64,000 bases of DNA from an uncultured Gammaproteobacteria bacterium (GCA_964651815.1 CAZYWG010000001.1:129189-193188), one strand, 5' to 3'. Numbered from the stretch's first letter, positions 6,485 to 45,351 are shown. Notes: a model not told the origin generated them from the sequence alone. Made by a program: numbers and translations.

Positions 6485-6748
6485 ATGAGTATTTCCCAAA
6501 TTGCCAACATCATAGGCTATATCGCTGCGGGAGTCGGAATAATTACATTTTTTCCTCAAGCTTTCAATGTTTGGAAAACTAAAAATACAAAAAGTATATC
6601 TTTGGGTACTTTCGTTATGCTCGCACTCGTCTCTATTTTGTGGACTACGTATGGATTTCTCATAATTGCTTATCCTGTTATCCTAGTGAATGTAGTTGTT
6701 TTTGTCATGACTGCATATATAACAATTATGAAATTAAAATACAAATGA
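6485..6748 (+). CDS. SemiSWEET / PQ-loop (MtN3-family) sugar transporter
   Basis: 87-aa protein with 3 TM helices and a PQ motif (FFPQAFNVWKTKNTKSISLGTFVMLAL). Size and topology match SemiSWEET. Confidence 0.7.
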   Translation: MSISQIANIIGYIAAGVGIITFFPQAFNVWKTKNTKSISLGTFVMLALVSILWTTYGFLIIAYPVILVNVVVFVMTAYITIMKLKYK

Positions 6749-7050
6749 TCTTAATACTTGTTAGTTTTGAAACAAATGAAGATGCGGACAAAGCCGCAAA
6801 TTTTTTAATTGATAACAAACTTGCTGCTTGCGTTGAAATTTACCCTGTCAAAAACTATTACATGTGGAAAGGTGAGAAAACAGTTGCCGATGAAATTTCA
6901 GGAGTTATCAAAACTGATGACAGATATTTTGAGAAAATCGAACAAGCACTAAAAGAAATTTTGCCCTACGAAATTCCGCAGATTATAGAAATTAAAGCCT
7001 CGAATGTGAACGACCCTTATCTCAAATGGCTCAAAGAATCAGTAAAATAA
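6745..7050 (+). CDS. cutA: CutA1 divalent-cation tolerance protein
   Basis: MILILVSFETNEDADKAANFLIDNKLAACVEIYPVKNYYMWKGE...EIPQIIEIKASNVNDPYLKWL. The ATG overlaps the SemiSWEET stop (ATGA). The longer listed ORF from 6640 has an overlapping, non-homologous N-terminus. Confidence 0.75.
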   Translation: MILILVSFETNEDADKAANFLIDNKLAACVEIYPVKNYYMWKGEKTVADEISGVIKTDDRYFEKIEQALKEILPYEIPQIIEIKASNVNDPYLKWLKESVK

Positions 7051-27820: not shown

Positions 27821-29104
27821 ATGAAAATTGGTATTATTGGAGCGGGATTTACTGGACTTTCTGCAGCATTCGCCTTATCAAAAAAGGGACACGACGTTGA
27901 GGTTTTTGAACGTGATGATAAGCCTGGAGGTTTAGCAATTGGATATCAAGAAAAAGAGTGGAAATGGAGCCTTGAAAAACATTACCATCATTGGTTTACA
28001 AATGATAAATTCGTATTGAATCTCGCAAAAGAAATTGGCCACAATGTAATTATTCGGCGCCCAAAAACTTCAAACTTTGTTAATGGCCGGATTTACCAGT
28101 TTGACTCTCCTCGTGACGTTTTGTCATTTCCAGAACTATCTGTATTTAACCGTCTGCGTATGGCTGCAGTAATTGCAACTTTGCGTTACGACCCTTTTTG
28201 GCAGCCGCTTGAGAAATTTAATGCAACCGAATTTTTACCTAAAACGATGGGCGAAGAAGCTTATAGATTAATTTGGGAGCCATTGTTTAAAAATAAATTC
28301 GGACCTTACTCAGATAACATTTCTCTTGCATGGTTTTGGGCAAGAATTGTAAAACGCACACCTTCTCTTGCTTATCCTGAAGGAGGTTTTCTAACTTTTG
28401 CACAGCACCTTCAGAAAGCAATAGAAAAACGAGACGGCAAATTTCAATATAATACAGAAGTTATTGATTTGTCATCAGATAAAAATCCCCACATAAAATT
28501 TTGCAGGGTCGGAACAACTGAAACAAAATTGAAAAGTTATGACAAAGTTATAGTTACACTTCCTTCCTTCCAATTTCTAAAAATCGCACATAATTTACCT
28601 GACGAGTATAAAAATAAATTTGTAAAACTTAAAGGTCTTGGCGCAACCAATCTTATTCTTCGTCTCAAAAAACCATTTTTTCAAGATAATACGTATTGGC
28701 TTAGTATCTGTGATCCAACCTCTCCCATTATGGCAATTGTAGAACATACAAATTTTATGGACAAAAAAAATTATAACAATGAACACCTAGTTTATCTTGG
28801 AAATTATTTACCTGCAGATCACACGAGATTTACTATGGACAAAGTAGAAAAGTTAAAACTTTTTGATTCTTTTTTAAAAAAAATCAATCCCGAGTATAAA
28901 AAGAGTTTAATAGATTATGAGCTATTCAAAGCTCCATTCGCTCAACCAATTATACCGGTTAACTATTCAAAAAATATTCCTCAACATAATACTCCCCTTA
29001 AGAATGTGTATTTAGCAAATATTGAACAGGTTTACCCATGGGACAGGGGGACAAATTATGCTGTTGAACTTGGAGAAAAAATAGCAAATATTGTTTTTAA
29101 TTAA
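27821..29104 (+). CDS. FAD/NAD(P)-binding oxidoreductase of the amine-oxidase/phytoene-desaturase/protoporphyrinogen-oxidase superfamily
   Basis: N-terminal Rossmann fold MKIGIIGAGFTGLSAAFALSKKGHDVEVFERDDKPGG. It is the first gene of a co-directional operon of overlapping genes. Confidence 0.7.
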   Translation: MKIGIIGAGFTGLSAAFALSKKGHDVEVFERDDKPGGLAIGYQEKEWKWSLEKHYHHWFTNDKFVLNLAKEIGHNVIIRRPKTSNFVNGRIYQFDSPRDVLSFPELSVFNRLRMAAVIATLRYDPFWQPLEKFNATEFLPKTMGEEAYRLIWEPLFKNKFGPYSDNISLAWFWARIVKRTPSLAYPEGGFLTFAQHLQKAIEKRDGKFQYNTEVIDLSSDKNPHIKFCRVGTTETKLKSYDKVIVTLPSFQFLKIAHNLPDEYKNKFVKLKGLGATNLILRLKKPFFQDNTYWLSICDPTSPIMAIVEHTNFMDKKNYNNEHLVYLGNYLPADHTRFTMDKVEKLKLFDSFLKKINPEYKKSLIDYELFKAPFAQPIIPVNYSKNIPQHNTPLKNVYLANIEQVYPWDRGTNYAVELGEKIANIVFN

Positions 29105-31320
29105 TGGACTTTCAAAGCATATCTTCTCTTGCCTATTTTGTTTCTTTTCTTCTCCTTATAACTTGCCTTGGAATTCCAATTGTGTTTCTTCTTTTTAAAA
29201 AAAACGGGGATCATGGTTTTGCTTTTTCAAAGCTTTCTGTAATTCTTATTTTATCTTTCACTTCTTGGCTTATAGGATATATGGGAGAGGTATATATTTT
29301 TAAAACAATTTTGGCAGAATTTTTAATAATCGCAATTATTTCCTCGATTGTTTTTTTTAAAAATAAAAAAGACTTAATTAAAACTCTCAAATCTAGCAAA
29401 AAGATATTTATTTTTGAGGAACTTATTTTTTGGATTTTCTTCTTTTCTTTTATCTTAATTCGCGTAGGTAACCCAGACTTATGGCACCCTGTCATGGGTG
29501 GCGAAAAACCGATGGATTTTGCCTTCTTAAATGCAATGGTAAGAACAACTTCTCTTCCACCATTTGACCCATGGTTTGCAGGAAGTACTATCAATTATTA
29601 CTATTTTGGGCAATTTATAGGCGCGACAATTATTAAGCTATTAAATATTCCTTCTGCTATATTCTATAATCTTTTTCTTTCATACCTTTTTGCTCAAGCC
29701 GCGGTGGGCGCAGCATCAATTATTTTTTCATTCACGAAAAATAAGGCGTTTTCATTATTGGGAAGCTTCTTTCTTTTGGTATCAGGCAATTTAGCACAGA
29801 TTCCCGTAATCATTGGCTCATTCAAAACCGCTATTCCTATAAATGGGTGGTATTGGACAGCAACACGAATTATGCCAAATTTTGAAATAAATGAATTTCC
29901 ATTTTTTACATTTCTTTATGCAGATCTCCACTCTCACCTAATTGCGCTTCCCATAGATTTATTTTTAATTGCTCTTCTAACTGAATTTTATCAACTCTTG
30001 AAATCCCAGGAATTAATGCGAGCAACGTTTTTAGTAATTCTCGCATCAATTGTTCTTGGAATATTACGAATGACAAACATATGGGACTACCCTAGCTTTT
30101 TGCTATTTACTTTTTTAGTTATCTTTTTATCAATCTTACATTTTTCAAAAAAAAGCGTTTTTAAACGACTCTTAATAGCGGGTTTCTTATCCGCAATTTC
30201 AGTTGTAGTAAGTAATCTTTCTATTCTACCTTTTATTATTTTTTATAAAACCGGCCCTCTTGGCGCAACAATTTACACAGAGCACCCCACGCGAATATCT
30301 GATTATGTTTTAATTCATGGATTCTTTTTGTTTATATTAATTACTTTCTTTATTGTATTTATTAAATTTAAAAATATTTTTACTCTTTCCAAGATATATA
30401 GGCTCTTTTTGTTTATACCGTTGGCAATTTGCGTTATTTTACTCTCAAAAAGTTTGATCTTTCTAGCATTTATTTCTTTCCTAATTTCATTAACTTTTAT
30501 CACCTTTGTGATAAACAGAAATGACAAACTGGCACCTCCAGTAATTCTATTAATCTTTGCACTTTTCTTGACTTCAATTCCCGATATTATCGACATAAAA
30601 CTCGGTCTCGGAAGAATGAATACCGTTTTTAAATTCTATTTTCAAGGATGGATATTTTTTGCACTTGGATCATCGATTGCCTCATTTTTTATTTTCGAGA
30701 AGATTAAAAAACACTCAACCGTAAAAATCGTCGTAATGGTAATTTTCTTTGTATTATTTGGCGGAACGCTTTTGTATCCCGTGACAGCCACACCTGCAAA
30801 AATTAATGACAGAATGGGGCTAGATAGACGTCCCACTTTAAATGGCGAGCACTACATGAATAATTCCATTTACTACGACAAAGAGGAAAGTATCCCTCTC
30901 CGTTATGACATGTTTGCCATTGATTGGATTAAAAAAAATATAGAAGGAAAACCTGTAATTCTTGAGGCGTCTGTCCCTATTTATCGCTGGGGAAGCCGCA
31001 TCTCAATATATACAGGACTCCCTACTGTACTTGGTTGGGATTGGCACGAAATTGCGCATAGACAATATCTTCCGGCATCAGATATCCAAATCCGCACTGC
31101 TCAAATTCAACAAATATATGAATCAAATGATTTTGAAGCAACAAAAAAACTTTTGGTACTATATAATATTTCATATATTTATTTAGGTCAACTTGAGAAA
31201 GCGTATTACAATACGTCTGGTATTAGAAATATAATTGTTAAACATCCGGCATTTTTTGTGGAAGTTTACAAAAATCCACAAGTTACTATCTATAAGTTTT
31301 TGAATGGAAGATCTTATTAA
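29104..31320 (+). CDS. Chlor_Arch_YYY / DUF2298-like polytopic membrane protein (738 aa), first paralog; probably a GT-C-type transferase
   Basis: About 16 or more TM helices. Motifs EKPMDFAFLNA, DPWFAG, INYYYFG (the YYYxG motif) and GLPTVLGWDWHE. The ATG overlaps the stop of the upstream oxidoreductase. Confidence 0.6.
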   Translation: MDFQSISSLAYFVSFLLLITCLGIPIVFLLFKKNGDHGFAFSKLSVILILSFTSWLIGYMGEVYIFKTILAEFLIIAIISSIVFFKNKKDLIKTLKSSKKIFIFEELIFWIFFFSFILIRVGNPDLWHPVMGGEKPMDFAFLNAMVRTTSLPPFDPWFAGSTINYYYFGQFIGATIIKLLNIPSAIFYNLFLSYLFAQAAVGAASIIFSFTKNKAFSLLGSFFLLVSGNLAQIPVIIGSFKTAIPINGWYWTATRIMPNFEINEFPFFTFLYADLHSHLIALPIDLFLIALLTEFYQLLKSQELMRATFLVILASIVLGILRMTNIWDYPSFLLFTFLVIFLSILHFSKKSVFKRLLIAGFLSAISVVVSNLSILPFIIFYKTGPLGATIYTEHPTRISDYVLIHGFFLFILITFFIVFIKFKNIFTLSKIYRLFLFIPLAICVILLSKSLIFLAFISFLISLTFITFVINRNDKLAPPVILLIFALFLTSIPDIIDIKLGLGRMNTVFKFYFQGWIFFALGSSIASFFIFEKIKKHSTVKIVVMVIFFVLFGGTLLYPVTATPAKINDRMGLDRRPTLNGEHYMNNSIYYDKEESIPLRYDMFAIDWIKKNIEGKPVILEASVPIYRWGSRISIYTGLPTVLGWDWHEIAHRQYLPASDIQIRTAQIQQIYESNDFEATKKLLVLYNISYIYLGQLEKAYYNTSGIRNIIVKHPAFFVEVYKNPQVTIYKFLNGRSY

Positions 31321-35064: not shown

Positions 35065-35615
35065 AGACAAAAATTGGGTTTGATTTTGACAAAATATTTG
35101 TATCATATCCTCCAATTATTCCGGGCTTTTTAATTGAATATTTATATAAGAAGAAAAACCATAATCTTTCTTATAGAATCCCTGGTAAGGTAGAGCAAAA
35201 GATAAGGGTTCTCTCTCATACACCAATTTTTCGTCGTCCTATAAAATCTAACATTGATGCACTTAAAAAAATTTTTGATTCAAAGGAATTTAAAATATAC
35301 TTAATTTCAAGCAGGTTTTCATTTTTAAAAAAAAGGACAGATGACTGGAACCATAAACACAAACTCTCCAGTTTTTTTGAAAACATGTACTTTAACTTTG
35401 ATGATAAACAACCGCATATTTTTAAAAAAACAATCATTAAAAAGGAAGGTATTCAAAAGTTTGTGGATGATGATCTTGATCTTTTGCGATATCTTGCTAA
35501 AGAAAACGAGGACGTACAATTTTATTGGCTGAGTGATAATCATCATTTGACAAAATTACCGGAAAATATCAAAAAAATTAAAAATTTGGAAGAATTTAGA
35601 ATTAAATATTTATGA
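35061..35615 (+). CDS. Hypothetical protein, possibly a HAD-like phosphatase
   Basis: 184-aa protein. FDFDKIF is a motif I-like DxD sequence. VDDDLD is motif IV-like. Translationally coupled to both neighbours. Confidence 0.3.
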   Translation: MKTKIGFDFDKIFVSYPPIIPGFLIEYLYKKKNHNLSYRIPGKVEQKIRVLSHTPIFRRPIKSNIDALKKIFDSKEFKIYLISSRFSFLKKRTDDWNHKHKLSSFFENMYFNFDDKQPHIFKKTIIKKEGIQKFVDDDLDLLRYLAKENEDVQFYWLSDNHHLTKLPENIKKIKNLEEFRIKYL

Positions 35616-37762
35616 TCACACAAGATTTTCTGTATGTTCTCCAGTGGTGGATTCCCTTTTTTATATTGGGAATAGTTTTTTTCCCGTTAACATCTCTTGT
35701 ATTTGAAAACTTTTTGGATAAAGGTTATATTTTTTCAAGAGTAATTGCTATTGGTATAATCTCCTATGTTGTTTTTGTAATTAACGAACTTCACCTCCTA
35801 AAATTTAATACTCCTACGATTCTATTTGTTGTCTTTCTTTTTCTTATTGTTAATATTTTGATTTTTCATAAAACTAAATCCATTAACTTCAAAAAAATAA
35901 ATTACAAAATCATTATTTTTGAAGAGCTTTTATTTTTAGTAGGAATTATTATTTGGTCTTATGTCAGAGCACATGAACCAAGTATTAATGGACTTGAAAA
36001 GTTTATGGACTTTGGATTTCTGAATTCTATTTTAAGATCTGATTATATGCCACCAACTGATATGTGGTTTACACCGCTACCAATAAATTATTACTATTTT
36101 GGTCACCTAAGCACTGCCGTTATTACCAAACTCTCTTTTTTACCATCATTTTTAACATTTAATCTAATGATAGCAACTCTGTTTTCTTTTACATTTAGTC
36201 TTTCTTTCTCTCTTGCTTCAAACTTAATTTCTAAAGCTATTTCTGTTAAAAAAGGAATTTTTGGAGGATTTATTACGGCAATTCTTTTAACTTTTGGAGG
36301 TAACCTTCACATGATTTATGCATTATTTAAACCGTATGATGTAACCAACCCTGTCCCCTTTTGGAAACTTTCATTTTCCCCGCTTACTTTCCCAAATAGC
36401 TATTGGTATCCAAATGCAACGCGTTTTATTCCCTACACTATCCATGAATTCCCAATTTATTCATTTGTTGTATCCGATCTTCACGGGCATGTAATTGACA
36501 TAATGTACGTGCTCTTATCAATTACTTTAATCTACGCCCTTTTTATTAAAAAGGGGATTGATAAGGTGACACTCGTTTTAATATCTTTTTTCCTTGCAAT
36601 AATGTACATGACAAATGCGTGGGATGGTGGAATTTATTTAATGCTAGTGTGCATAATACTATTCATCAAAAATTGGCACTATATAAAAATCCGTAAAGGT
36701 CAAAAAATCTTATCAATTCTTAACCATCTTGAATTATCTAATATTAAAGTTTTTTTAACAAAACTTTTTAAACCTGCTATTAGCACTTTTATTTTATTTG
36801 TTATTTTTTCACTCCCGTTTAACATCTATTTTCAGACAGGGGCGATAGTACATGGTATTGGAGTTGTCTGCGCGCCAAGTTTTCTGACTAATATTGGTCA
36901 CTTGGGCCCGTTCTTATTTGAAGCGTCACATTGCCAAAAATCCACATGGTGGGAACTCTTAACTCTTTACGGATTTTTCTACTTTTTTGTTTTATCGTTT
37001 TTGATTTTTATATCCCGGAGCAAAAAATTGAATTTGCTAACTGAAGACTTCTTTATTTTAGCGTTAATTCTAATTTCAACTCTATTGATAATTATTCCAG
37101 AATTTTTCTATCTTAAAGATATTTATCCTGCTCATTATCGTGCAAATACCATGTTTAAACTTGTTTACCAAGCATTTATGATGCTCTCGATTGTTTCGGT
37201 TTACGTTTTAGTCAGAATTTTGAATAAAACAAAAAATATTTTCTTTTACATCATGAGTGCAATTTTAATCATCCCAATTCTTATCTATCCTTATTTTGCA
37301 ATTAGGTCATATTATGGAGATTTTAAGAACTATACTGGAATTAATGGTTCGCTTTATCTTAAAACACGCTACCCGGATGATTACTCTGCAATAAACTGGA
37401 TAAATACCAACATTCAGGGCCGACCGGTGATGGTAGAAGCACAAGGCGATTCTTACACGGATTACGAAAGGATTTCAGCAAATACAGGCCTTCCAACAAT
37501 TCTTGGCTGGACAGTCCATGAATGGCTTTGGCGTGGGACGTATGATATTCCAGCACCGCGAATTCAAGAAGTCAAAGATGTTTATGAAAATCCGGATGTT
37601 AATAAAACACGACAGATATTAAAAAAATACAATGTGCAGTATGTTTATATAGGAACACTTGAGCATCAAAAATATGTAAATTTAAAAGAGGACAAATTTG
37701 ATAAACTTGGTAAAGTGGTTTTCCAGCAAGGACAAACAACAATCATTAAACTATCTATTTAA
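35612..37762 (+). CDS. Chlor_Arch_YYY / DUF2298-like polytopic membrane protein (716 aa), second paralog
   Basis: Same architecture and motifs as the 29104-31320 gene: EKFMDFGFLNS, DMWFTP, INYYYFG and GLPTILGWTVHEWLW. Confidence 0.6.
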   Translation: MITQDFLYVLQWWIPFFILGIVFFPLTSLVFENFLDKGYIFSRVIAIGIISYVVFVINELHLLKFNTPTILFVVFLFLIVNILIFHKTKSINFKKINYKIIIFEELLFLVGIIIWSYVRAHEPSINGLEKFMDFGFLNSILRSDYMPPTDMWFTPLPINYYYFGHLSTAVITKLSFLPSFLTFNLMIATLFSFTFSLSFSLASNLISKAISVKKGIFGGFITAILLTFGGNLHMIYALFKPYDVTNPVPFWKLSFSPLTFPNSYWYPNATRFIPYTIHEFPIYSFVVSDLHGHVIDIMYVLLSITLIYALFIKKGIDKVTLVLISFFLAIMYMTNAWDGGIYLMLVCIILFIKNWHYIKIRKGQKILSILNHLELSNIKVFLTKLFKPAISTFILFVIFSLPFNIYFQTGAIVHGIGVVCAPSFLTNIGHLGPFLFEASHCQKSTWWELLTLYGFFYFFVLSFLIFISRSKKLNLLTEDFFILALILISTLLIIIPEFFYLKDIYPAHYRANTMFKLVYQAFMMLSIVSVYVLVRILNKTKNIFFYIMSAILIIPILIYPYFAIRSYYGDFKNYTGINGSLYLKTRYPDDYSAINWINTNIQGRPVMVEAQGDSYTDYERISANTGLPTILGWTVHEWLWRGTYDIPAPRIQEVKDVYENPDVNKTRQILKKYNVQYVYIGTLEHQKYVNLKEDKFDKLGKVVFQQGQTTIIKLSI

Positions 37763-38921
37763 CGCCATTTGTGGGCGTCTCCCCAACTTTTGTTATCCCT
37801 TCCTTTCCAACTGTACAAACACTACCTTCTGTAATACATGCCACATAATCATGTATTTCCGAAAAGTCATTTTCGCCTACGCGTGGTGAAAGAATAAACT
37901 GAAATTGCTTATCTGATGTTGGGACGGGTTGTGATAAAAGTCCAAATGTACCCTGATAAACGTTGCCTGAATCAATCACATAACTTTGTGTTTTTGCATT
38001 TTGCATTTTGCGTGCGAGATTTATAAAATCATCATATTCATTAGCTTGAATATCAGTATCAATATTACTTTTTAATATATTAAAAATTCCAAATATTTTG
38101 ACGGGATTAAGAATAATCCCTAAGGATAAAACTTTTTCTTTAACTGCTGAAATTACTTCTTGTTGACGCTTGCTCCTTGCAAAATCAGATCCTTCTTCAC
38201 CTACTCCGTGACGCGACCGAGAAAATTCTAGTGCTAAATTTCCATCCATATGTTGAAGCCCAGCATTTACATGCAGGTGAACATAACGGCATGGGAAATA
38301 TGTCCAAATATCCTGTTCTGCTGACGCGGTTGCCGTAAAATCTTTAATATCTTGATCAGAATGATCACAAGTATCCGCTTCTTTTCCTTCAACTGGATAA
38401 TTATAATCATCAAGAGTATGAGAGACATTCACATCAACACCTCCCAAATAATCAATCAATTTAACAAAACCCGAAAAATCAATAACAACAACGTAGTCAA
38501 TTGGAACTCCGGCTACTTTCTCAACAACTGCTTTGGCATAAAGCTTTCCCTGATTATTTTGTTTCTGTCCAAGCGCGTAGGCTAAATTAATTTTACCCTT
38601 TATATCATCAACCCACAGATCTCGTGGAATGGAAATTAGACCCGCAGAGTCTTTTGAAGGATTTACCATTGCAAGAATAATGGTGTCTGTTAAATCAGGG
38701 CCGTCATGTGTTCCACCACCTCGACCTAGTATTAAAATATTTATATTACCGCTTTTTTCTTCTTTTAATTGAAGCTTTTGGTTAAGAACAAATTTATAAA
38801 TTAAGTAAGACGCGGCAATCAAAAATATTGCTAGAATAATAATTATAAAAGGGTTATTTTTTTTAAGCATTTTTAACAATTGAGGCAAAACTTTCGGGGT
38901 CGCGGCTTGATCTACCAACAA
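37755..38921 (-). CDS. LytR-CpsA-Psr (LCP) family cell-envelope polymer transferase
   Basis: N-terminal TM helix, then ILILGRGGGTHDGPDLTDTIILAMVNPSKDSAGLISIPRDLWV, the LCP core motif. The start is probably the internal Met near 38870. Confidence 0.8.
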   Translation of the reverse strand: MLVDQAATPKVLPQLLKMLKKNNPFIIIILAIFLIAASYLIYKFVLNQKLQLKEEKSGNINILILGRGGGTHDGPDLTDTIILAMVNPSKDSAGLISIPRDLWVDDIKGKINLAYALGQKQNNQGKLYAKAVVEKVAGVPIDYVVVIDFSGFVKLIDYLGGVDVNVSHTLDDYNYPVEGKEADTCDHSDQDIKDFTATASAEQDIWTYFPCRYVHLHVNAGLQHMDGNLALEFSRSRHGVGEEGSDFARSKRQQEVISAVKEKVLSLGIILNPVKIFGIFNILKSNIDTDIQANEYDDFINLARKMQNAKTQSYVIDSGNVYQGTFGLLSQPVPTSDKQFQFILSPRVGENDFSEIHDYVACITEGSVCTVGKEGITKVGETPTNGVK

Positions 38922-39540
38922 GGACTCCTGATATATTTTCCATTGCAGTAAATTTTCCTACGTTCTCTGGATTTACACTTCCGCCATATAAAACGAGTTG
39001 AAGATCCGGGTATTTACCTTTTACTGTTTTTGCAACCATTTCAGCATTTTCAGGAGTGTCAGGCTTGTCAGAACCTATTGCAAATGGAGGCTCGTAAGCC
39101 ACTACAGAAACGCCTTGAGGAATGGGTGTGTTTTCATCTTGAATACAAAAAATTGGAATTAAACCTGCATTAATCGCGGTCGCTACCTTTTTTGAAAGCA
39201 TTTCATCATTTTCTCCAAAATTCTTTCTCCGCTCAGAATGCCCAATAATTGCGTATTTCACAAACTCCGCTGCTTGATGTGCCGACACTTCACCTGTATA
39301 TTCTCCGTCTTCAAAAGGCGCAACGTCCTGCACGCCAAGTGCAATTGGCAAACTATTTGCTCTAATATATTTTGCCGCGTCAGGAACAGAAAGAAAAGGT
39401 GGACAAATCACAATTTTATTGTTTGACTGACTTAAAGATTCAAGAAGCGCTCCTATTTTTTCAAAATAACTTGTGGCTTCGACTGAAGTCATTTGCATTT
39501 TCCAATTACCAACAGTTAATAACTCTTTCATATGATACAA
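38863..39540 (-). CDS. tpiA: Triosephosphate isomerase
   Basis: The N-terminal catalytic motif GNWKM, the active-site motif IIGHSERR, the catalytic glutamate in AYEPPFAIGS, and C-terminal YGGSV. Confidence 0.9.
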   Translation of the reverse strand: MYHMKELLTVGNWKMQMTSVEATSYFEKIGALLESLSQSNNKIVICPPFLSVPDAAKYIRANSLPIALGVQDVAPFEDGEYTGEVSAHQAAEFVKYAIIGHSERRKNFGENDEMLSKKVATAINAGLIPIFCIQDENTPIPQGVSVVAYEPPFAIGSDKPDTPENAEMVAKTVKGKYPDLQLVLYGGSVNPENVGKFTAMENISGVLVGRSSRDPESFASIVKNA

Positions 39541-41430: not shown

Positions 41431-42446
41431 GCGAATTTATTGATGTTAACGACTCCAAAAAGGAAGAATTTAATAAAGTGGTCAATCACCCATTACAATC
41501 TTTTGAATGGGGTGAGTTTCGCAAAAAAACCGGGATTAAAGTAATAAGACGGGCTCTTATCCAAAATGGACAATTTGTAGATGGATTTACTGTAACTCTT
41601 CATAAAGTTCCTAAAACAAAATACTACATTGGGTATTTGCCTAAAGGAAATGAACCAACAAAAGAAGTCATCGAGGAACTCAAAAGAATTGGAAAGGAAA
41701 ATAATTGCATATTTATCCAACTTGAACCAAATATCATAAGTCTTAAATCTGAAGTCTTAGGTCTTCTAAAACCCGCTGCCCACCCCCTGTTTACAAAATT
41801 CACTTTTGTTCTTGACCTAACAAAATCAGAAGATGAACTGTTAAAACAAATGCATTCAAAAACACGTTATAACATCCGTGTTGCTGAGAAACATAATGTA
41901 AAAGTTTCTGAAGATAATTCTGAAAAAAGTTTTGTAGAATATTTAAAACTGATGCTCACAACCACTAGTCGCCAGGGTTTTTATGCACACACGCCAAGCT
42001 ATCATGAAAAACTTTTCGAGACTTTGCCAAAAGAAGAGGGACCAAATATCTTATCTTACCATTTACTAAATGCGCAATTCGATTCTAAAACTTTAACTTC
42101 TTGGGTTTTATTTGTTTTCAAAAATCATCTTTATTATCCTTATGGTGCGTCCAGCCGCGAACACCGCGAAACAATGTCTAACAATCTTGTTGCATGGGAA
42201 GCAATCAAATTCGGCAAAAAACTAGGACTTAAAAAATTTGATATGTGGGGGGCACTCGGGACAGAACCCGATAAAAACGACCCATGGTATGGCTTCCATA
42301 GATTTAAAGAAGGTTACGGCGCAGAACTTGTAGAATTCGTTGGATCATATGATCTTATTGTAAAACCTAAACTTTACGAACTATATAAAGTCGCTGATAA
42401 ATTCCGCTGGGAATTATTAAGAGTAAAGAAAAAAATTCTTAAATGA
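41427..42446 (+). CDS. FemAB-family peptidyltransferase (peptidoglycan interpeptide-bridge formation, FemX-like)
   Basis: 339-aa protein with two GNAT-like halves. LQSFEWGEFRKKTG is an N-terminal FemAB signature. Translationally coupled to the helicase gene. Confidence 0.75.
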   Translation: MSEFIDVNDSKKEEFNKVVNHPLQSFEWGEFRKKTGIKVIRRALIQNGQFVDGFTVTLHKVPKTKYYIGYLPKGNEPTKEVIEELKRIGKENNCIFIQLEPNIISLKSEVLGLLKPAAHPLFTKFTFVLDLTKSEDELLKQMHSKTRYNIRVAEKHNVKVSEDNSEKSFVEYLKLMLTTTSRQGFYAHTPSYHEKLFETLPKEEGPNILSYHLLNAQFDSKTLTSWVLFVFKNHLYYPYGASSREHRETMSNNLVAWEAIKFGKKLGLKKFDMWGALGTEPDKNDPWYGFHRFKEGYGAELVEFVGSYDLIVKPKLYELYKVADKFRWELLRVKKKILK

Positions 42447-42972
42447 TTTTATAGAGGTACATTTCGTTCTTTCTGTCTTCTCCTACAAGCTGTATTTTTT
42501 TATCCTGTTCAAACTTATATCTGTAGCTTACAACTTTTGTCCCTTTTTTTAACTCTTTAAACAATTTTGGTTTCAGTTTTTCAAGGACCCTTGGGACAAG
42601 ATAAACAAAGACTATTGTTGCACTGTTTAAATTGATGTTAAAAAAATTACCTTTTTTAAGTGTTACTTTTTTTCCAACTTTGTTTAATACAACATTTAAC
42701 TTAGCGGTTAAGTGTCTTATTGGATCTATTTCAACACCAAAACATTTCGCGTCAAAATTTTTTGCCACTGTTACCAAAAACGTTGCGTCACCACTTCCCA
42801 ATTCATATACGATATCTTTTGAATCTATTTTTGCGAGTTTAGCCGCAGCTTTTGCTTTTCTTCCGCTTGTCCGCCACCAAGGACTCCAGGGACTATCAGG
42901 CGGCCAAACACACGACAAAATAATAAGTAGTATAAATACAAAAAAAATAAGTACCAAATTGATAATCATCAT
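42439..42972 (-). CDS. Small class I SAM-dependent methyltransferase with an N-terminal TM helix
   Basis: VYELGSGDATFLVTVAKNF is SAM motif I (ExGxGxG), followed by motif II-like sequence FGVEID. Confidence 0.65.
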   Translation of the reverse strand: MMIINLVLIFFVFILLIILSCVWPPDSPWSPWWRTSGRKAKAAAKLAKIDSKDIVYELGSGDATFLVTVAKNFDAKCFGVEIDPIRHLTAKLNVVLNKVGKKVTLKKGNFFNINLNSATIVFVYLVPRVLEKLKPKLFKELKKGTKVVSYRYKFEQDKKIQLVGEDRKNEMYLYKII

Positions 42973-43248
42973 TTAAATTTTAATCAGCACTTTTCCCAAA
43001 ATATTTTCTTTCTTAATTGGTTCGACTTTTAAACTATCGTTCATATTGTCTCCCCCAACAACAAAAAATTCTTGATTTATTTTTGTGATACGTTTGATGA
43101 TAATTCTATCATTATATTTGAACAAGATCACATCACCAACGCGAGGGTCTCTGAAAAAATAAGGAATTGAGCTAATAATTACATGATTGTTGGGCTTGAA
43201 TGTAGGCAACATGCTATGACCTGAAATCTTAAACAAACCGAGGATCAT
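42973..43248 (-). CDS. sodX: NiSOD maturation protease SodX (small S26-family signal-peptidase-like serine protease)
   Basis: 91-aa protein. SGHSMLPT contains the SGSM-type nucleophile, and KRITKI contains the general-base Lys. It lies immediately downstream of sodN. Confidence 0.75.
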   Translation of the reverse strand: MILGLFKISGHSMLPTFKPNNHVIISSIPYFFRDPRVGDVILFKYNDRIIIKRITKINQEFFVVGGDNMNDSLKVEPIKKENILGKVLIKI

Positions 43249-43253
43249 GGAGA

Positions 43254-43784
43254 TTATTTGTGCATCACTATTTCTCCGCCAGTTGGATATCCAGATGGAA
43301 CGTGGATAGATTCAAGGTTTTTTGTTTTGTAAAAAATCTCGGCAATTTTTTGAGTATTTTCGAGAAGCTCATTTGCTGCAACTTTATCAATATTCTGTCT
43401 GACTTTAATAGAAAGTTTTACGGTGGACGACAAAAGCGCTTGAAGTTCTGGATATTTCTCATGGTGCTCGGGTTTAAAATAATCATTTTCAAGAGTCCCC
43501 AATTCTTCTTCAACTATTCCACCGTGCTCTTCTTTTACATGAACCATCCGTGCAATATCATGTTCTGTTTTTGTTTCATCTTCCCTTTTCAATTCGCTGA
43601 TTAATGAAGTCATACGAATAACCGTATGCGCTGCCATTTGAATACCATGAACATCATAAACCCCGCATGGTATATCACAATGCGCATAAGCAATTGGCGT
43701 AGGAATTAAATTGACAAAAAGAGGTATAATTTTTAGAACTTTTTTTGTCACCCTGAACGAAGTGAAGGACCTTATACTCACCAT
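43254..43784 (-). CDS. sodN: Nickel-containing superoxide dismutase precursor (NiSOD)
   Basis: The Ni-hook motif HCDIPCGVYD (43653-43682) follows a 34-aa leader ending AYA. Confidence 0.9.
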   Translation of the reverse strand: MVSIRSFTSFRVTKKVLKIIPLFVNLIPTPIAYAHCDIPCGVYDVHGIQMAAHTVIRMTSLISELKREDETKTEHDIARMVHVKEEHGGIVEEELGTLENDYFKPEHHEKYPELQALLSSTVKLSIKVRQNIDKVAANELLENTQKIAEIFYKTKNLESIHVPSGYPTGGEIVMHK

Positions 43785-43928
43785 AATTCTATATTAGACT
43801 AACACATGAAGGTTTGAATTTCAATATAAATCTGCAATAAATATGAACATATCCAAAACTACCATTTGATGGATCGCAATCTAGACTATAATAAACGCGT
43901 TAAGAAAATATGTTAAAGAATAAAAATC

Positions 43929-44480
43929 CTAAGCGGCTTTTCTCAGCTCTTGAGTAACAAATCTTTGTATTACCGGTACTGCTTGACCAGGCACCGGCAT
44001 ACCTCTTTGAATTCCCATCTCCGAAAGCTTTTGCGTCGCCCCTGACCAACCAACTAATTCTGAGATTGGATCAACCTTCTCATTGGTTCTAGACTGGTAA
44101 GTAACTATCAACTCTTCACCATTTTTTACACCTACAATTAAGGCTTTTTTACCCTCTGACCAAGTAAGATACCTTGCTGCAATACCAAAGAAATCTTGCT
44201 CCTCAGGAATAATATCACCGGAGTGTCGTGGTAAATCCAATCTTACCAAACTCACTGTTTTGCAAATCTGTCCAGGTTTTCCTAACCCTCCAAGAACCTC
44301 TTGATTCACAAGCTCAAGTGAAGGAGTTACATGCAAACCTTCCAAAACCTGCCTGCCAAAAACAGCATTTAATCTTGCGAGGCTCTCAGGATATGGCGAG
44401 ACATAAGGCTCGGCTTTATCAACGATTTTTCCTTTGTCTCTTGCTAAATCCCTTAAACTATCAATGAATTGTTCTGCCAT
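43929..44480 (-). CDS. Hypothetical protein (183 aa) with no recognisable motif and slightly elevated GC
   Basis: Clean ORF co-directional with the downstream ATP-cone nuclease gene. No TM helix. GC is visibly higher than its flanks. Confidence 0.4.
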   Translation of the reverse strand: MAEQFIDSLRDLARDKGKIVDKAEPYVSPYPESLARLNAVFGRQVLEGLHVTPSLELVNQEVLGGLGKPGQICKTVSLVRLDLPRHSGDIIPEEQDFFGIAARYLTWSEGKKALIVGVKNGEELIVTYQSRTNEKVDPISELVGWSGATQKLSEMGIQRGMPVPGQAVPVIQRFVTQELRKAA

Positions 44481-44514: not shown

Positions 44515-45351
44515 TCAATTTTCTCCGCAGATAAGACTAGCGGATTTTTTAATTTCGGCAACTCTTTGTTTATCTATCATGTATTTGGTAACAAATTCAT
44601 CTTCGGGAATTTTTATAAGATCTGAGGCGAGCACAATATCATTGTCTATCAATCTCCTTTTTTCTTCGGTTGTCAGATCTGTCATTATCGTCACAGGGTA
44701 CATTTTTGGCCTCTCAACAAAGTCTTGAAGACTTTCATTATCCGGATAATTCCACGCAAGAGTCTTTATTCCTTTACACTCGGCATATGTAATTGCATCA
44801 ACCGTAAGCTTTGTATTTGTTGCCACCCACACGGCCTCTATCTTGTTTCTTTCCTTAATATCAAGGAATCTGGCATAAGTATAAAGCAAAACTTGCACAT
44901 CTGTTTTTCCAAAACTTTGATTGTGGAATTTTGCCTCAATTATTTCCCTCTTCCCATTTTTCTCAAGTAAAACATCTATCTCATGAGAAACACATTCACC
45001 TTGCATTATAAGATCAACCTGAGTTTTATATCCTTGACTCTCAAAAATTCTTGCTAAATATTGCTCGAATGGAAAACCGGTTGGTCCAAGTTCAAAAATT
45101 CCCTGGCGTAGATTAAAACGCAAAGCGCTTTTTCTATCTTTATGGACCAAAAATTCCCTGATGTGATAAAAAATCTCATCAGTTGTAATTGTATTATCCG
45201 TTTGGACCCGTTCTTTAATGTGCTCAAGGACGCGGTCAAAAAGCTCTTTTGGAACTCCACTTCTTTCCATGGAGCGAATAACGCGCATATCATCAAACAC
45301 AACCTGCTCTCCATCTCGCTTTATAACGGTTATTGGGGACTGGGCAGTCAT
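44515..45351 (-). CDS. ATP-cone domain fused to an Mrr-type (PD-(D/E)xK) restriction-endonuclease-like domain
   Basis: N-terminal ATP-cone ITVIKRDGEQVVFDDMRVIRSM. C-terminal Mrr_cat-like YLARIFESQGY...HEIDVLLEKNGKREIIEAKFHN with a D...E.K catalytic pattern. Confidence 0.6.
   Translation of the reverse strand: MTAQSPITVIKRDGEQVVFDDMRVIRSMERSGVPKELFDRVLEHIKERVQTDNTITTDEIFYHIREFLVHKDRKSALRFNLRQGIFELGPTGFPFEQYLARIFESQGYKTQVDLIMQGECVSHEIDVLLEKNGKREIIEAKFHNQSFGKTDVQVLLYTYARFLDIKERNKIEAVWVATNTKLTVDAITYAECKGIKTLAWNYPDNESLQDFVERPKMYPVTIMTDLTTEEKRRLIDNDIVLASDLIKIPEDEFVTKYMIDKQRVAEIKKSASLICGEN

Follow-up and report, generated by a model that had tools for sequence, protein, structure and literature searches.

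On the minus strand of the window, as we call the whole 64-kb stretch of DNA that was analysed, two short genes stand one behind the other: sodN, which encodes a nickel superoxide dismutase (NiSOD) precursor, and sodX, which encodes its predicted maturation protease. The genes point the same way, sodX downstream, and the gap between them is 5 nt. The coding features are as follows:

43254..43784, minus strand: sodN, NiSOD precursor, 176 aa if the start is the ATG at 43784; the mature enzyme has 142 aa
43683..43784, minus strand: propeptide (leader), 34 codons, MVSIRSFTSFRVTKKVLKIIPLFVNLIPTPIAYA, from the sequence and alignments
43683..43736, minus strand: family-homologous part of the leader, its last 18 codons, by alignment to the whole family propeptide
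43656..43682, minus strand: Ni-hook HCDIPCGVY (His1, Cys2, Cys6 and Tyr9 of the mature enzyme), residues 35–43, from the sequence
42973..43248, minus strand: sodX, predicted NiSOD maturation protease, 91 aa, from Pfam, dyad, fold and synteny
43213..43215, minus strand: codon for Ser12 of SodX (GHSMLPT), the catalytic Ser box
43093..43095, minus strand: codon for Lys52 of SodX (IIKRI), the catalytic Lys box
42439..42972, minus strand: membrane-anchored class I methyltransferase, protein-lysine-methyltransferase-like, whose ATG comes directly after the sodX TAA

SodN is a NiSOD precursor. It opens with the leader and continues with HCDIPCGVYD, the Ni-hook by which the gene had been recognized in an earlier note on this DNA, and the identification is confirmed by Pfam Sod_Ni (PF09055; 3.1e-32, 112.3 bits against a cut-off of 25) and by the NCBIfam sodN model TIGR02753 (125.7 bits against a cut-off of 90), both passed. 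Residues 35–156 align end to end with mature Streptomyces NiSOD (1t6i/1q0d) and cover the whole of that enzyme, with His35 falling on its residue 1; the SodN of Streptomyces coelicolor and S. seoulensis (1t6u, 1q0d) has the same hook, HCDxPCGxY, at the mature N-terminus. In alignment A1, with 26 homologs, the hook residues H35, C36, P39, C40, G41 and Y43 are invariant, and the 142-aa mature part of the window protein is intact, with 40 of the 40 invariant family positions kept. The fold is predicted to be a four-helix bundle: the AF2 model has helices at 46–64, 70–102, 114–130 and 134–154 with pLDDT above 90, in a bundle that is confident from 46 to 154, while in the precursor model the leader has a pLDDT of ~63 and the cleavage region falls below 50, values too low to tell how the leader packs. 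Residues 157–176 (43257..43316, minus strand) form a C-terminal tail of 20 residues, …SGYPTGGEIVxHK, which AF2 draws as a beta-hairpin; it is conserved in the mature NiSODs of the clade and absent from the 117-aa Streptomyces enzyme.

SodX appears, from its sequence and its modelled structure, to be a soluble S24/S26-fold Ser/Lys protease with a predicted role in NiSOD maturation. The earlier description of it as S26-like holds: Pfam Peptidase_S26 (1.3e-10, 41.9 bits against 22.9) and Peptidase_S24 (1.1e-07, 32 against 23.3) are both passed, and the AF2 model (pLDDT 88.6) has the S24/S26 (clan SF) fold, with Foldseek matches to SipA, SpsB, LexA and UmuD at TM 0.6–0.84. Against TIGR02754 the protein scores 42.3 bits, below the curated cut-off of 63.25, in a match that spans model positions 2–89 of 90, and its assignment therefore rests on context, dyad and fold. 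The dyad, which the same note had marked for checking, is intact—Ser12 and Lys52 align with the Ser and Lys boxes of Bacillus anthracis signal peptidase I (4nv4)—and both residues are invariant across 16 SodX homologs. Fold and dyad are thus held in common with the type I signal peptidases (LepB/SipS/SpsB, MEROPS S26), but SodX has neither a membrane anchor nor a large extra beta-domain, and its 91 aa compare with at least 176 in the matched signal peptidase chains. No membrane segment or signal peptide is found in SodX (19-residue KD maximum 0.72), and only 11 residues lie ahead of the catalytic Ser. ‘Minimal’, as it had been called, it is not, since about 90 aa is the ordinary size of a SodX: the TIGR02754 model has 90 positions, and the homologs are mostly 89–97 aa long, with one of 127. 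The public NCBI protein for the SodX of this genome (P0121) is a shorter form of 79 aa whose start at Met13 leaves out the catalytic Ser12; the ORF of 91 aa from the ATG at 43248 (43213..43248, minus strand) fits the N-termini of all homologs (MILGLFKISGHSM).

Host genome and neighbourhood

The locus is very probably a standard two-gene NiSOD system, sodN-sodX, of a Patescibacteria (Levybacteria-like) genome, with maturation in the cytoplasm. The closest SodN homologs carry Levybacteria or Patescibacteria labels. NiSODs from metagenome-assembled genomes (MAGs) of these groups (e.g. P0008, P0048 and P0051, named ‘superoxide dismutase, Ni’) are 60–76% identical to the window SodN, and share with it the HCDIPCG hook, the propeptide end …LIPxxTAYA and the neighbourhood sodN-sodX-methyltransferase-FemAB-UvrD. 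The gene content of the window is of the small-genome type, and includes purine synthesis, GroEL, LepA, PilN/PilO, glycosyltransferases, and FemAB and UvrD family proteins. SodX lies directly 3' of sodN in 68 of 80 related loci by blastp, and phmmer finds it downstream of sodN with 75 matches in 81 sequences. Patescibacteria, DPANN archaea, Thermoplasmata and Dehalococcoidia all have pairs of this type.

In loci L031–L081, a SodX gene beside that of NiSOD is a widespread arrangement, which extends over DPANN archaea (Nano-, Woese-, Aenigm- and Micrarchaeota), MAGs of Thermoplasmata/Methanobacteriota, one Heimdallarchaeota MAG and Dehalococcoidia. These loci have a conserved propeptide in common, M-S-L-L-x-x-L-x-x-L-D-R-h-x-P-A-x-h-A-Y/H-A. 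Long stop-free segments in Methanobacteriota and Thermoplasmata loci had raised the suspicion of SodN-SodX fusions; this was rejected because sodN stops after 151 mature residues and the segments that bear SodX are in a different frame.

The methyltransferase abuts or overlaps the stop codon of sodX in 24 CPR (Patescibacteria) loci. It has a single transmembrane anchor and is related to an archaeal protein-lysine N-methyltransferase (NF041081, 4.8e-29, below the cut-off), and just past the membrane helix it carries a strikingly conserved motif, VWPPDSPW[AS]PWWRT (loci L002–L029, L060, L082, L084 and L086). We considered it as a third component of the system and rejected it: in L084 the gene adjoins FemAB/UvrD in a locus without sodN-sodX, for which reason we treat it as conserved synteny, probably no part of the NiSOD system.

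Directly upstream of sodN, at 43929..44480 on the minus strand, is an ORF of 183 aa that matches no family and has no homolog in any of the related loci. Beyond it, at 44515..45351 on the same strand, lies a gene for a protein that combines an ATP-cone, an Mrr_cat (restriction endonuclease-like) domain and an AF1548-like C-terminus; it is kept in only four related loci. Further away, two genes for large DUF2298 membrane proteins, at 29104..31320 (plus strand, E 4e-95) and 35612..37762 (plus strand, E 2e-92), belong to one glycosylation-type cluster together with PMT_2, an epimerase and methyltransferases. A triosephosphate isomerase ORF (38863..39540, minus strand), listed with a TTG start, overlaps the LytR_cpsA_psr ORF downstream of it (37755..38921, minus strand) by ~60 nt, and the listed starts of these ORFs are probably too far upstream. 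An Rfam scan of the window found two tRNAs only, both distant from sodN.

A working NiSOD implies, as the earlier note remarked, that nickel is taken up, and uptake by this organism is a reasonable supposition to draw from the enzyme. Among the 52 larger ORFs of the window, compared with NiCoT, HupE/UreJ, CbiM and Nik, none matches a nickel transporter, and the sole metal-related match is CutA1 at 6640..7050. In marine cyanobacteria a NiCoT-type transporter often lies near the NiSOD genes; the window has no such neighbour.

The start codon of sodN

The propeptides of the family are shorter than 34 aa. Annotated leaders measure 17–21 aa in 99 of the 119 closest homologs, with a mode of 18, and leaders in 80 genome loci run to 16–22 aa, with 28 aa in a few Dehalococcoidia. 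Where longer leaders are annotated among the homologs, an ATG lies inside them, between about −18 and −21; P0021 is the exception, with Val at −18. In Streptomyces the leader has 14 aa, as against the 18 aa typical of this clade and the 23 or 34 aa of the window. The match to TIGR02753 begins only at SodN residue 18, and the first 16 codons of the window leader are an extension found in no other sequence among the 199 relatives compared (Patescibacteria, DPANN, Thermoplasmata and Dehalococcoidia). In the Levybacteria and Patescibacteria MAGs an ATG stands at about −18, behind a strong promoter; at that position the window has CTA, in an ORF that continues 16 codons further upstream. Translation must consequently begin upstream, and the only in-frame ATG, GTG or TTG codons upstream of His1 are ATG(−34), GTG(−33) and GTG(−23). 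The features that bear on the choice are these:

43734..43736, minus strand: CTA (Leu −18), standing opposite the start ATG of the closest relatives (alignment A1 and leader table)
43749..43751, minus strand: GTG(−23), the alternative start besides ATG(−34)/GTG(−33), giving a 23-aa leader
43791..43818, minus strand: promoter-like site TTCAAA-16-TAATAT, 8/12 matches, ending 6 nt before ATG(−34)
43888..43916, minus strand: second, stronger promoter-like site TTAACA-17-TATTAT, 10/12 matches, ~100 nt upstream of ATG(−34)

Shine-Dalgarno-like (SD) motifs precede only 5 of the 52 genes of the window, and are uninformative for the choice between ATG(−34) and GTG(−23). Promoters say more. A −10 box lies 3–12 nt before the start of 18 of the 26 operon heads, compared with 31% at random positions. 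In 25 of 32 CPR relatives, a strong sigma-70 promoter (TTGACA-17-TATxAT) ends 6–12 nt before the family ATG—1.8% at random—and that position, just before the ATG, both fixes the sodN starts of the relatives and makes their sodN mRNAs leaderless or nearly so. Many operon-leading genes of the window have a TATAAT/TATACT-like box 6–10 nt before the start (e.g. 53237, 57797, 60699, 24850 and 60847), and some have in addition a perfect TTGACA 17 nt upstream; with the scarcity of SD motifs, this points to leaderless mRNAs being widespread in the genome.

On balance, we favour a start at ATG(−34), position 43784, with an mRNA that is leaderless or nearly so, although the promoter in front of it is weak: it has 8 matches of 12, and in related loci 8% of positions taken at random reach such a score. 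Of the 34-aa leader that the earlier note had described, this much stands: it belongs to the longest ORF and is plausibly the true product. Its length does not stand by itself; it varies with the start, and GTG(−23) would give 23 aa.

Initiation at GTG(−23), at 43751, is possible but rather unlikely. The leader would then be M-TKKVLKIIPLFVNLIPTPIAYA, much nearer to the family norm of 16–22 aa, and the 34-aa form would be a longest-ORF artefact, as the internal canonical start makes of the other long annotated leaders, P0021 again excepted. The stronger promoter ~100 nt upstream would place both candidate starts within the mRNA, which might then not be leaderless, and so keeps this GTG in play. 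Against it, GTG is the rarer start (44 of the 52 listed ORFs of the window begin with ATG), neither an SD nor a −10 box lies ahead of it, the rival ATG(−34) shows the modal 6-nt leaderless geometry of the relatives, and public gene callers picked the ATG (P0001, 176 aa). The earlier note had held that a downstream start better backed by a ribosome-binding site would speak against the long leader; no SD precedes GTG(−23), and the long leader is unharmed on that count. The choice between the two codons is in any case a sub-question inside an ordinary cytoplasmic system, not an alternative to that system.

Whichever codon is used, the extension is derived, not ancestral, because it is unique among the 199 relatives and because the family start ATG is CTA here. 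This leaves without support the proposal that the long leader is an evolutionary intermediate between Sec signal-peptide cleavage and dedicated NiSOD maturation. The extra residues are best regarded as an addition peculiar to this lineage, and nothing in the analysis points to a function for them.

Loss of the family ATG might also be taken as a sign of decay, in which expression of sodN was crippled and the extension of the ORF upstream is fortuitous. The CTA at −18 is what such a history would leave behind, and the promoter is weaker than those of the relatives (8/12 as against 9–11/12). We think this highly unlikely, however: the mature region of 142 aa is intact throughout, with all 40 invariant family positions present, sodX is intact, dyad included, and an in-frame ATG with a well-placed −10 box is available.

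The leader and its likeness to a signal peptide

The earlier note read the n-h-c organization of a Sec signal peptide in the leader, saw in AYA|H a cleavage site placed exactly at the mature His1, and went on to suggest a NiSOD outside the cytoplasm. The site is there, and its small residues at −1 and −3 are what Sec requires, a rule that SodN leaders and Sec signal peptides have in common. Among the 199 relatives, however, Ala(−1) is present in 199, with Ala/Val(−3), Tyr/Phe/His(−2) and Pro(−7) conserved, whether the leader is hydrophobic or not; the motif consequently does not discriminate in favour of Sec, and is better seen as a family-wide feature of recognition by SodX.

What lies before the site is also unlike an h-region in most of the family. 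One or more charged residues occur at −15..−6 in 85 of the 119 close homologs (71%), in 27 of 33 CPR loci and in all 47 of the other, more distant loci, which share a conserved Asp-Arg/Lys pair at −11/−10; the charge-free core is found in the remaining 29% of close homologs. Positions −10, −14 and −17/−18 are repeatedly polar, and over −17..−7 the helical hydrophobic moment of 187 leaders averages 0.54 (z 1.7 against shuffles, with a positive z in 96%). The window leader conforms: its moment is 0.55 (z 2.3), as against 0.10–0.24 in the h-regions of three exported proteins of the window; its 12-residue hydropathy is 2.26, where the exported proteins of the window reach 2.7–3.85; its 19-residue maximum of 1.58 is borderline for membrane insertion; and its hydrophobic stretch includes two Pro and one Asn. 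A Sec signal has a uniformly hydrophobic, non-amphipathic h-region, which this leader lacks, and a signal-peptide character should be kept among orthologs, most of which here carry charges. Judged from the sequence, then, the supposed h-region is an amphipathic helix. SodN-type leaders as a group differ from Sec h-regions in this way, as amphipathic and often charged helices in which an aromatic side chain or His is conserved at −2 and a Pro at −7.

Some features of the window leader do lean the other way. Its N-terminus is cationic, with R5, R11, K14, K15 and K18 in the 34-aa form and three Lys in the 23-aa form; its last 16 positions are uncharged, a stretch reached by 3.5% of the relatives; and by 8-residue hydropathy the leader ranks among the top 10% of the family. 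Given that cationic N-terminus and the charge-free last 16 positions, a trained predictor might call it a signal peptide. As to the n-h-c organization, the charged n-region and the small residues at −1/−3 are real, but with an amphipathic middle of modest hydropathy the likeness is superficial.

We regard it as very improbable, therefore, that the extended, cationic, hydrophobic leader is a Sec signal or a membrane anchor and that the NiSOD of this presumed episymbiont is exported or attached to its surface. The positive N-terminus, the uncharged stretch, the AYA at −3..−1 and the local hydropathy are matched against a stretch that is amphipathic, broken by Pro and Asn, and less hydrophobic than those of the exported proteins of the window. 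Both the AxA and the last 18 residues are ordinary for a family in which most members carry charges there that are incompatible with Sec. The extension, moreover, occurs in one genome only, and directly downstream a soluble SodX, its dyad intact, has been kept that could do nothing for an exported substrate. The extracytoplasmic NiSOD of the earlier note thus finds no footing in the amphipathic leader, in the charged leaders of the relatives, or in a SodX that has neither a membrane segment nor a signal peptide. It is just as improbable that the 16-residue extension and the charge-free amphipathic leader together tether pre-NiSOD on the inner side of the membrane, or send part of it through Sec; were that so, an ultra-small episymbiont would have a surface-proximal nickel SOD, and a shift of start codon alone would have turned a cytoplasmic propeptide into a targeting signal.

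Maturation of the precursor

The ordinary cytoplasmic system, which we prefer, would work as follows. SodN would be synthesized in the cytoplasm as a precursor. SodX, soluble and armed with Ser12 and Lys52, would read the conserved C-terminal part of the propeptide—the amphipathic helix, Pro(−7) and Ala-Tyr-Ala(−3..−1)—and, by homology, would cleave between Ala(−1) and His1. The cut would free the N-terminal amine which, with Cys2 and Cys6, makes up the Ni-hook of the active enzyme. The identities of the genes, the dyad, the fold, the synteny, the conservation of the leader and the lack of a membrane segment in SodX come from the analysis itself; cleavage by SodX, its place in the cytoplasm and the start codon in use are things that we infer. 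Two considerations bear on the place: SodX lacks a membrane segment and a signal peptide, which would make cleavage by this cognate protease cytoplasmic, and a soluble protease in the cytoplasm is unable to cut a substrate that has been exported, so that the retention of SodX supports cytoplasmic maturation.

Known systems behave in the same manner. According to PMC3919588 and PMC8346466 (the latter citing Eitinger 2004), NiSOD becomes active when SodX, its cognate peptidase, cleaves the preprotein, and maturation is described as cytoplasmic for Streptomyces and Prochlorococcus. The SodN-SodX of Streptomyces (SCO5254/SCO5255) likewise combines a propeptide cut off exactly ahead of His1, with small residues at −1/−3, and a cognate S26-like peptidase (PMC3919588). 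The spacing differs: streptomycetes have a conserved intergenic region between sodN and sodX (PMC3919588), whereas in the window the co-directional sodX follows after 5 nt. Prochlorococcus marinus MIT9313, from a different phylum, likewise has SodN and SodX as a two-gene unit in a small genome, with a short, soluble SodX of about 90–100 aa like that of the window; its active NiSOD depends on the cognate peptidase, as reported in the passages of PMC8346466 and PMC3919588 that cite Eitinger 2004. A literature search for surveys of propeptide length and for NiSOD in Patescibacteria returned general statements only.

As an operon, sodN-sodX adds little to the biology of NiSOD, such genes having already been annotated in this lineage. 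Its by-products are modest. Across Patescibacteria, DPANN, Thermoplasmata and Dehalococcoidia the propeptide bears a family-wide signature, an amphipathic helix with Pro(−7) and Ala-[Tyr/His/Phe]-Ala before His1, which is presumably what SodX recognizes and which accounts for the resemblance to a signal peptide without export. The start codon gives another. The present sodN is the one case in which the canonical start has truly been lost, while the other long annotated leaders are artefacts of gene calling; in SD-poor genomes such as this, the position of the promoter fixes start codons, and exposes long annotated leaders that are artefactual.
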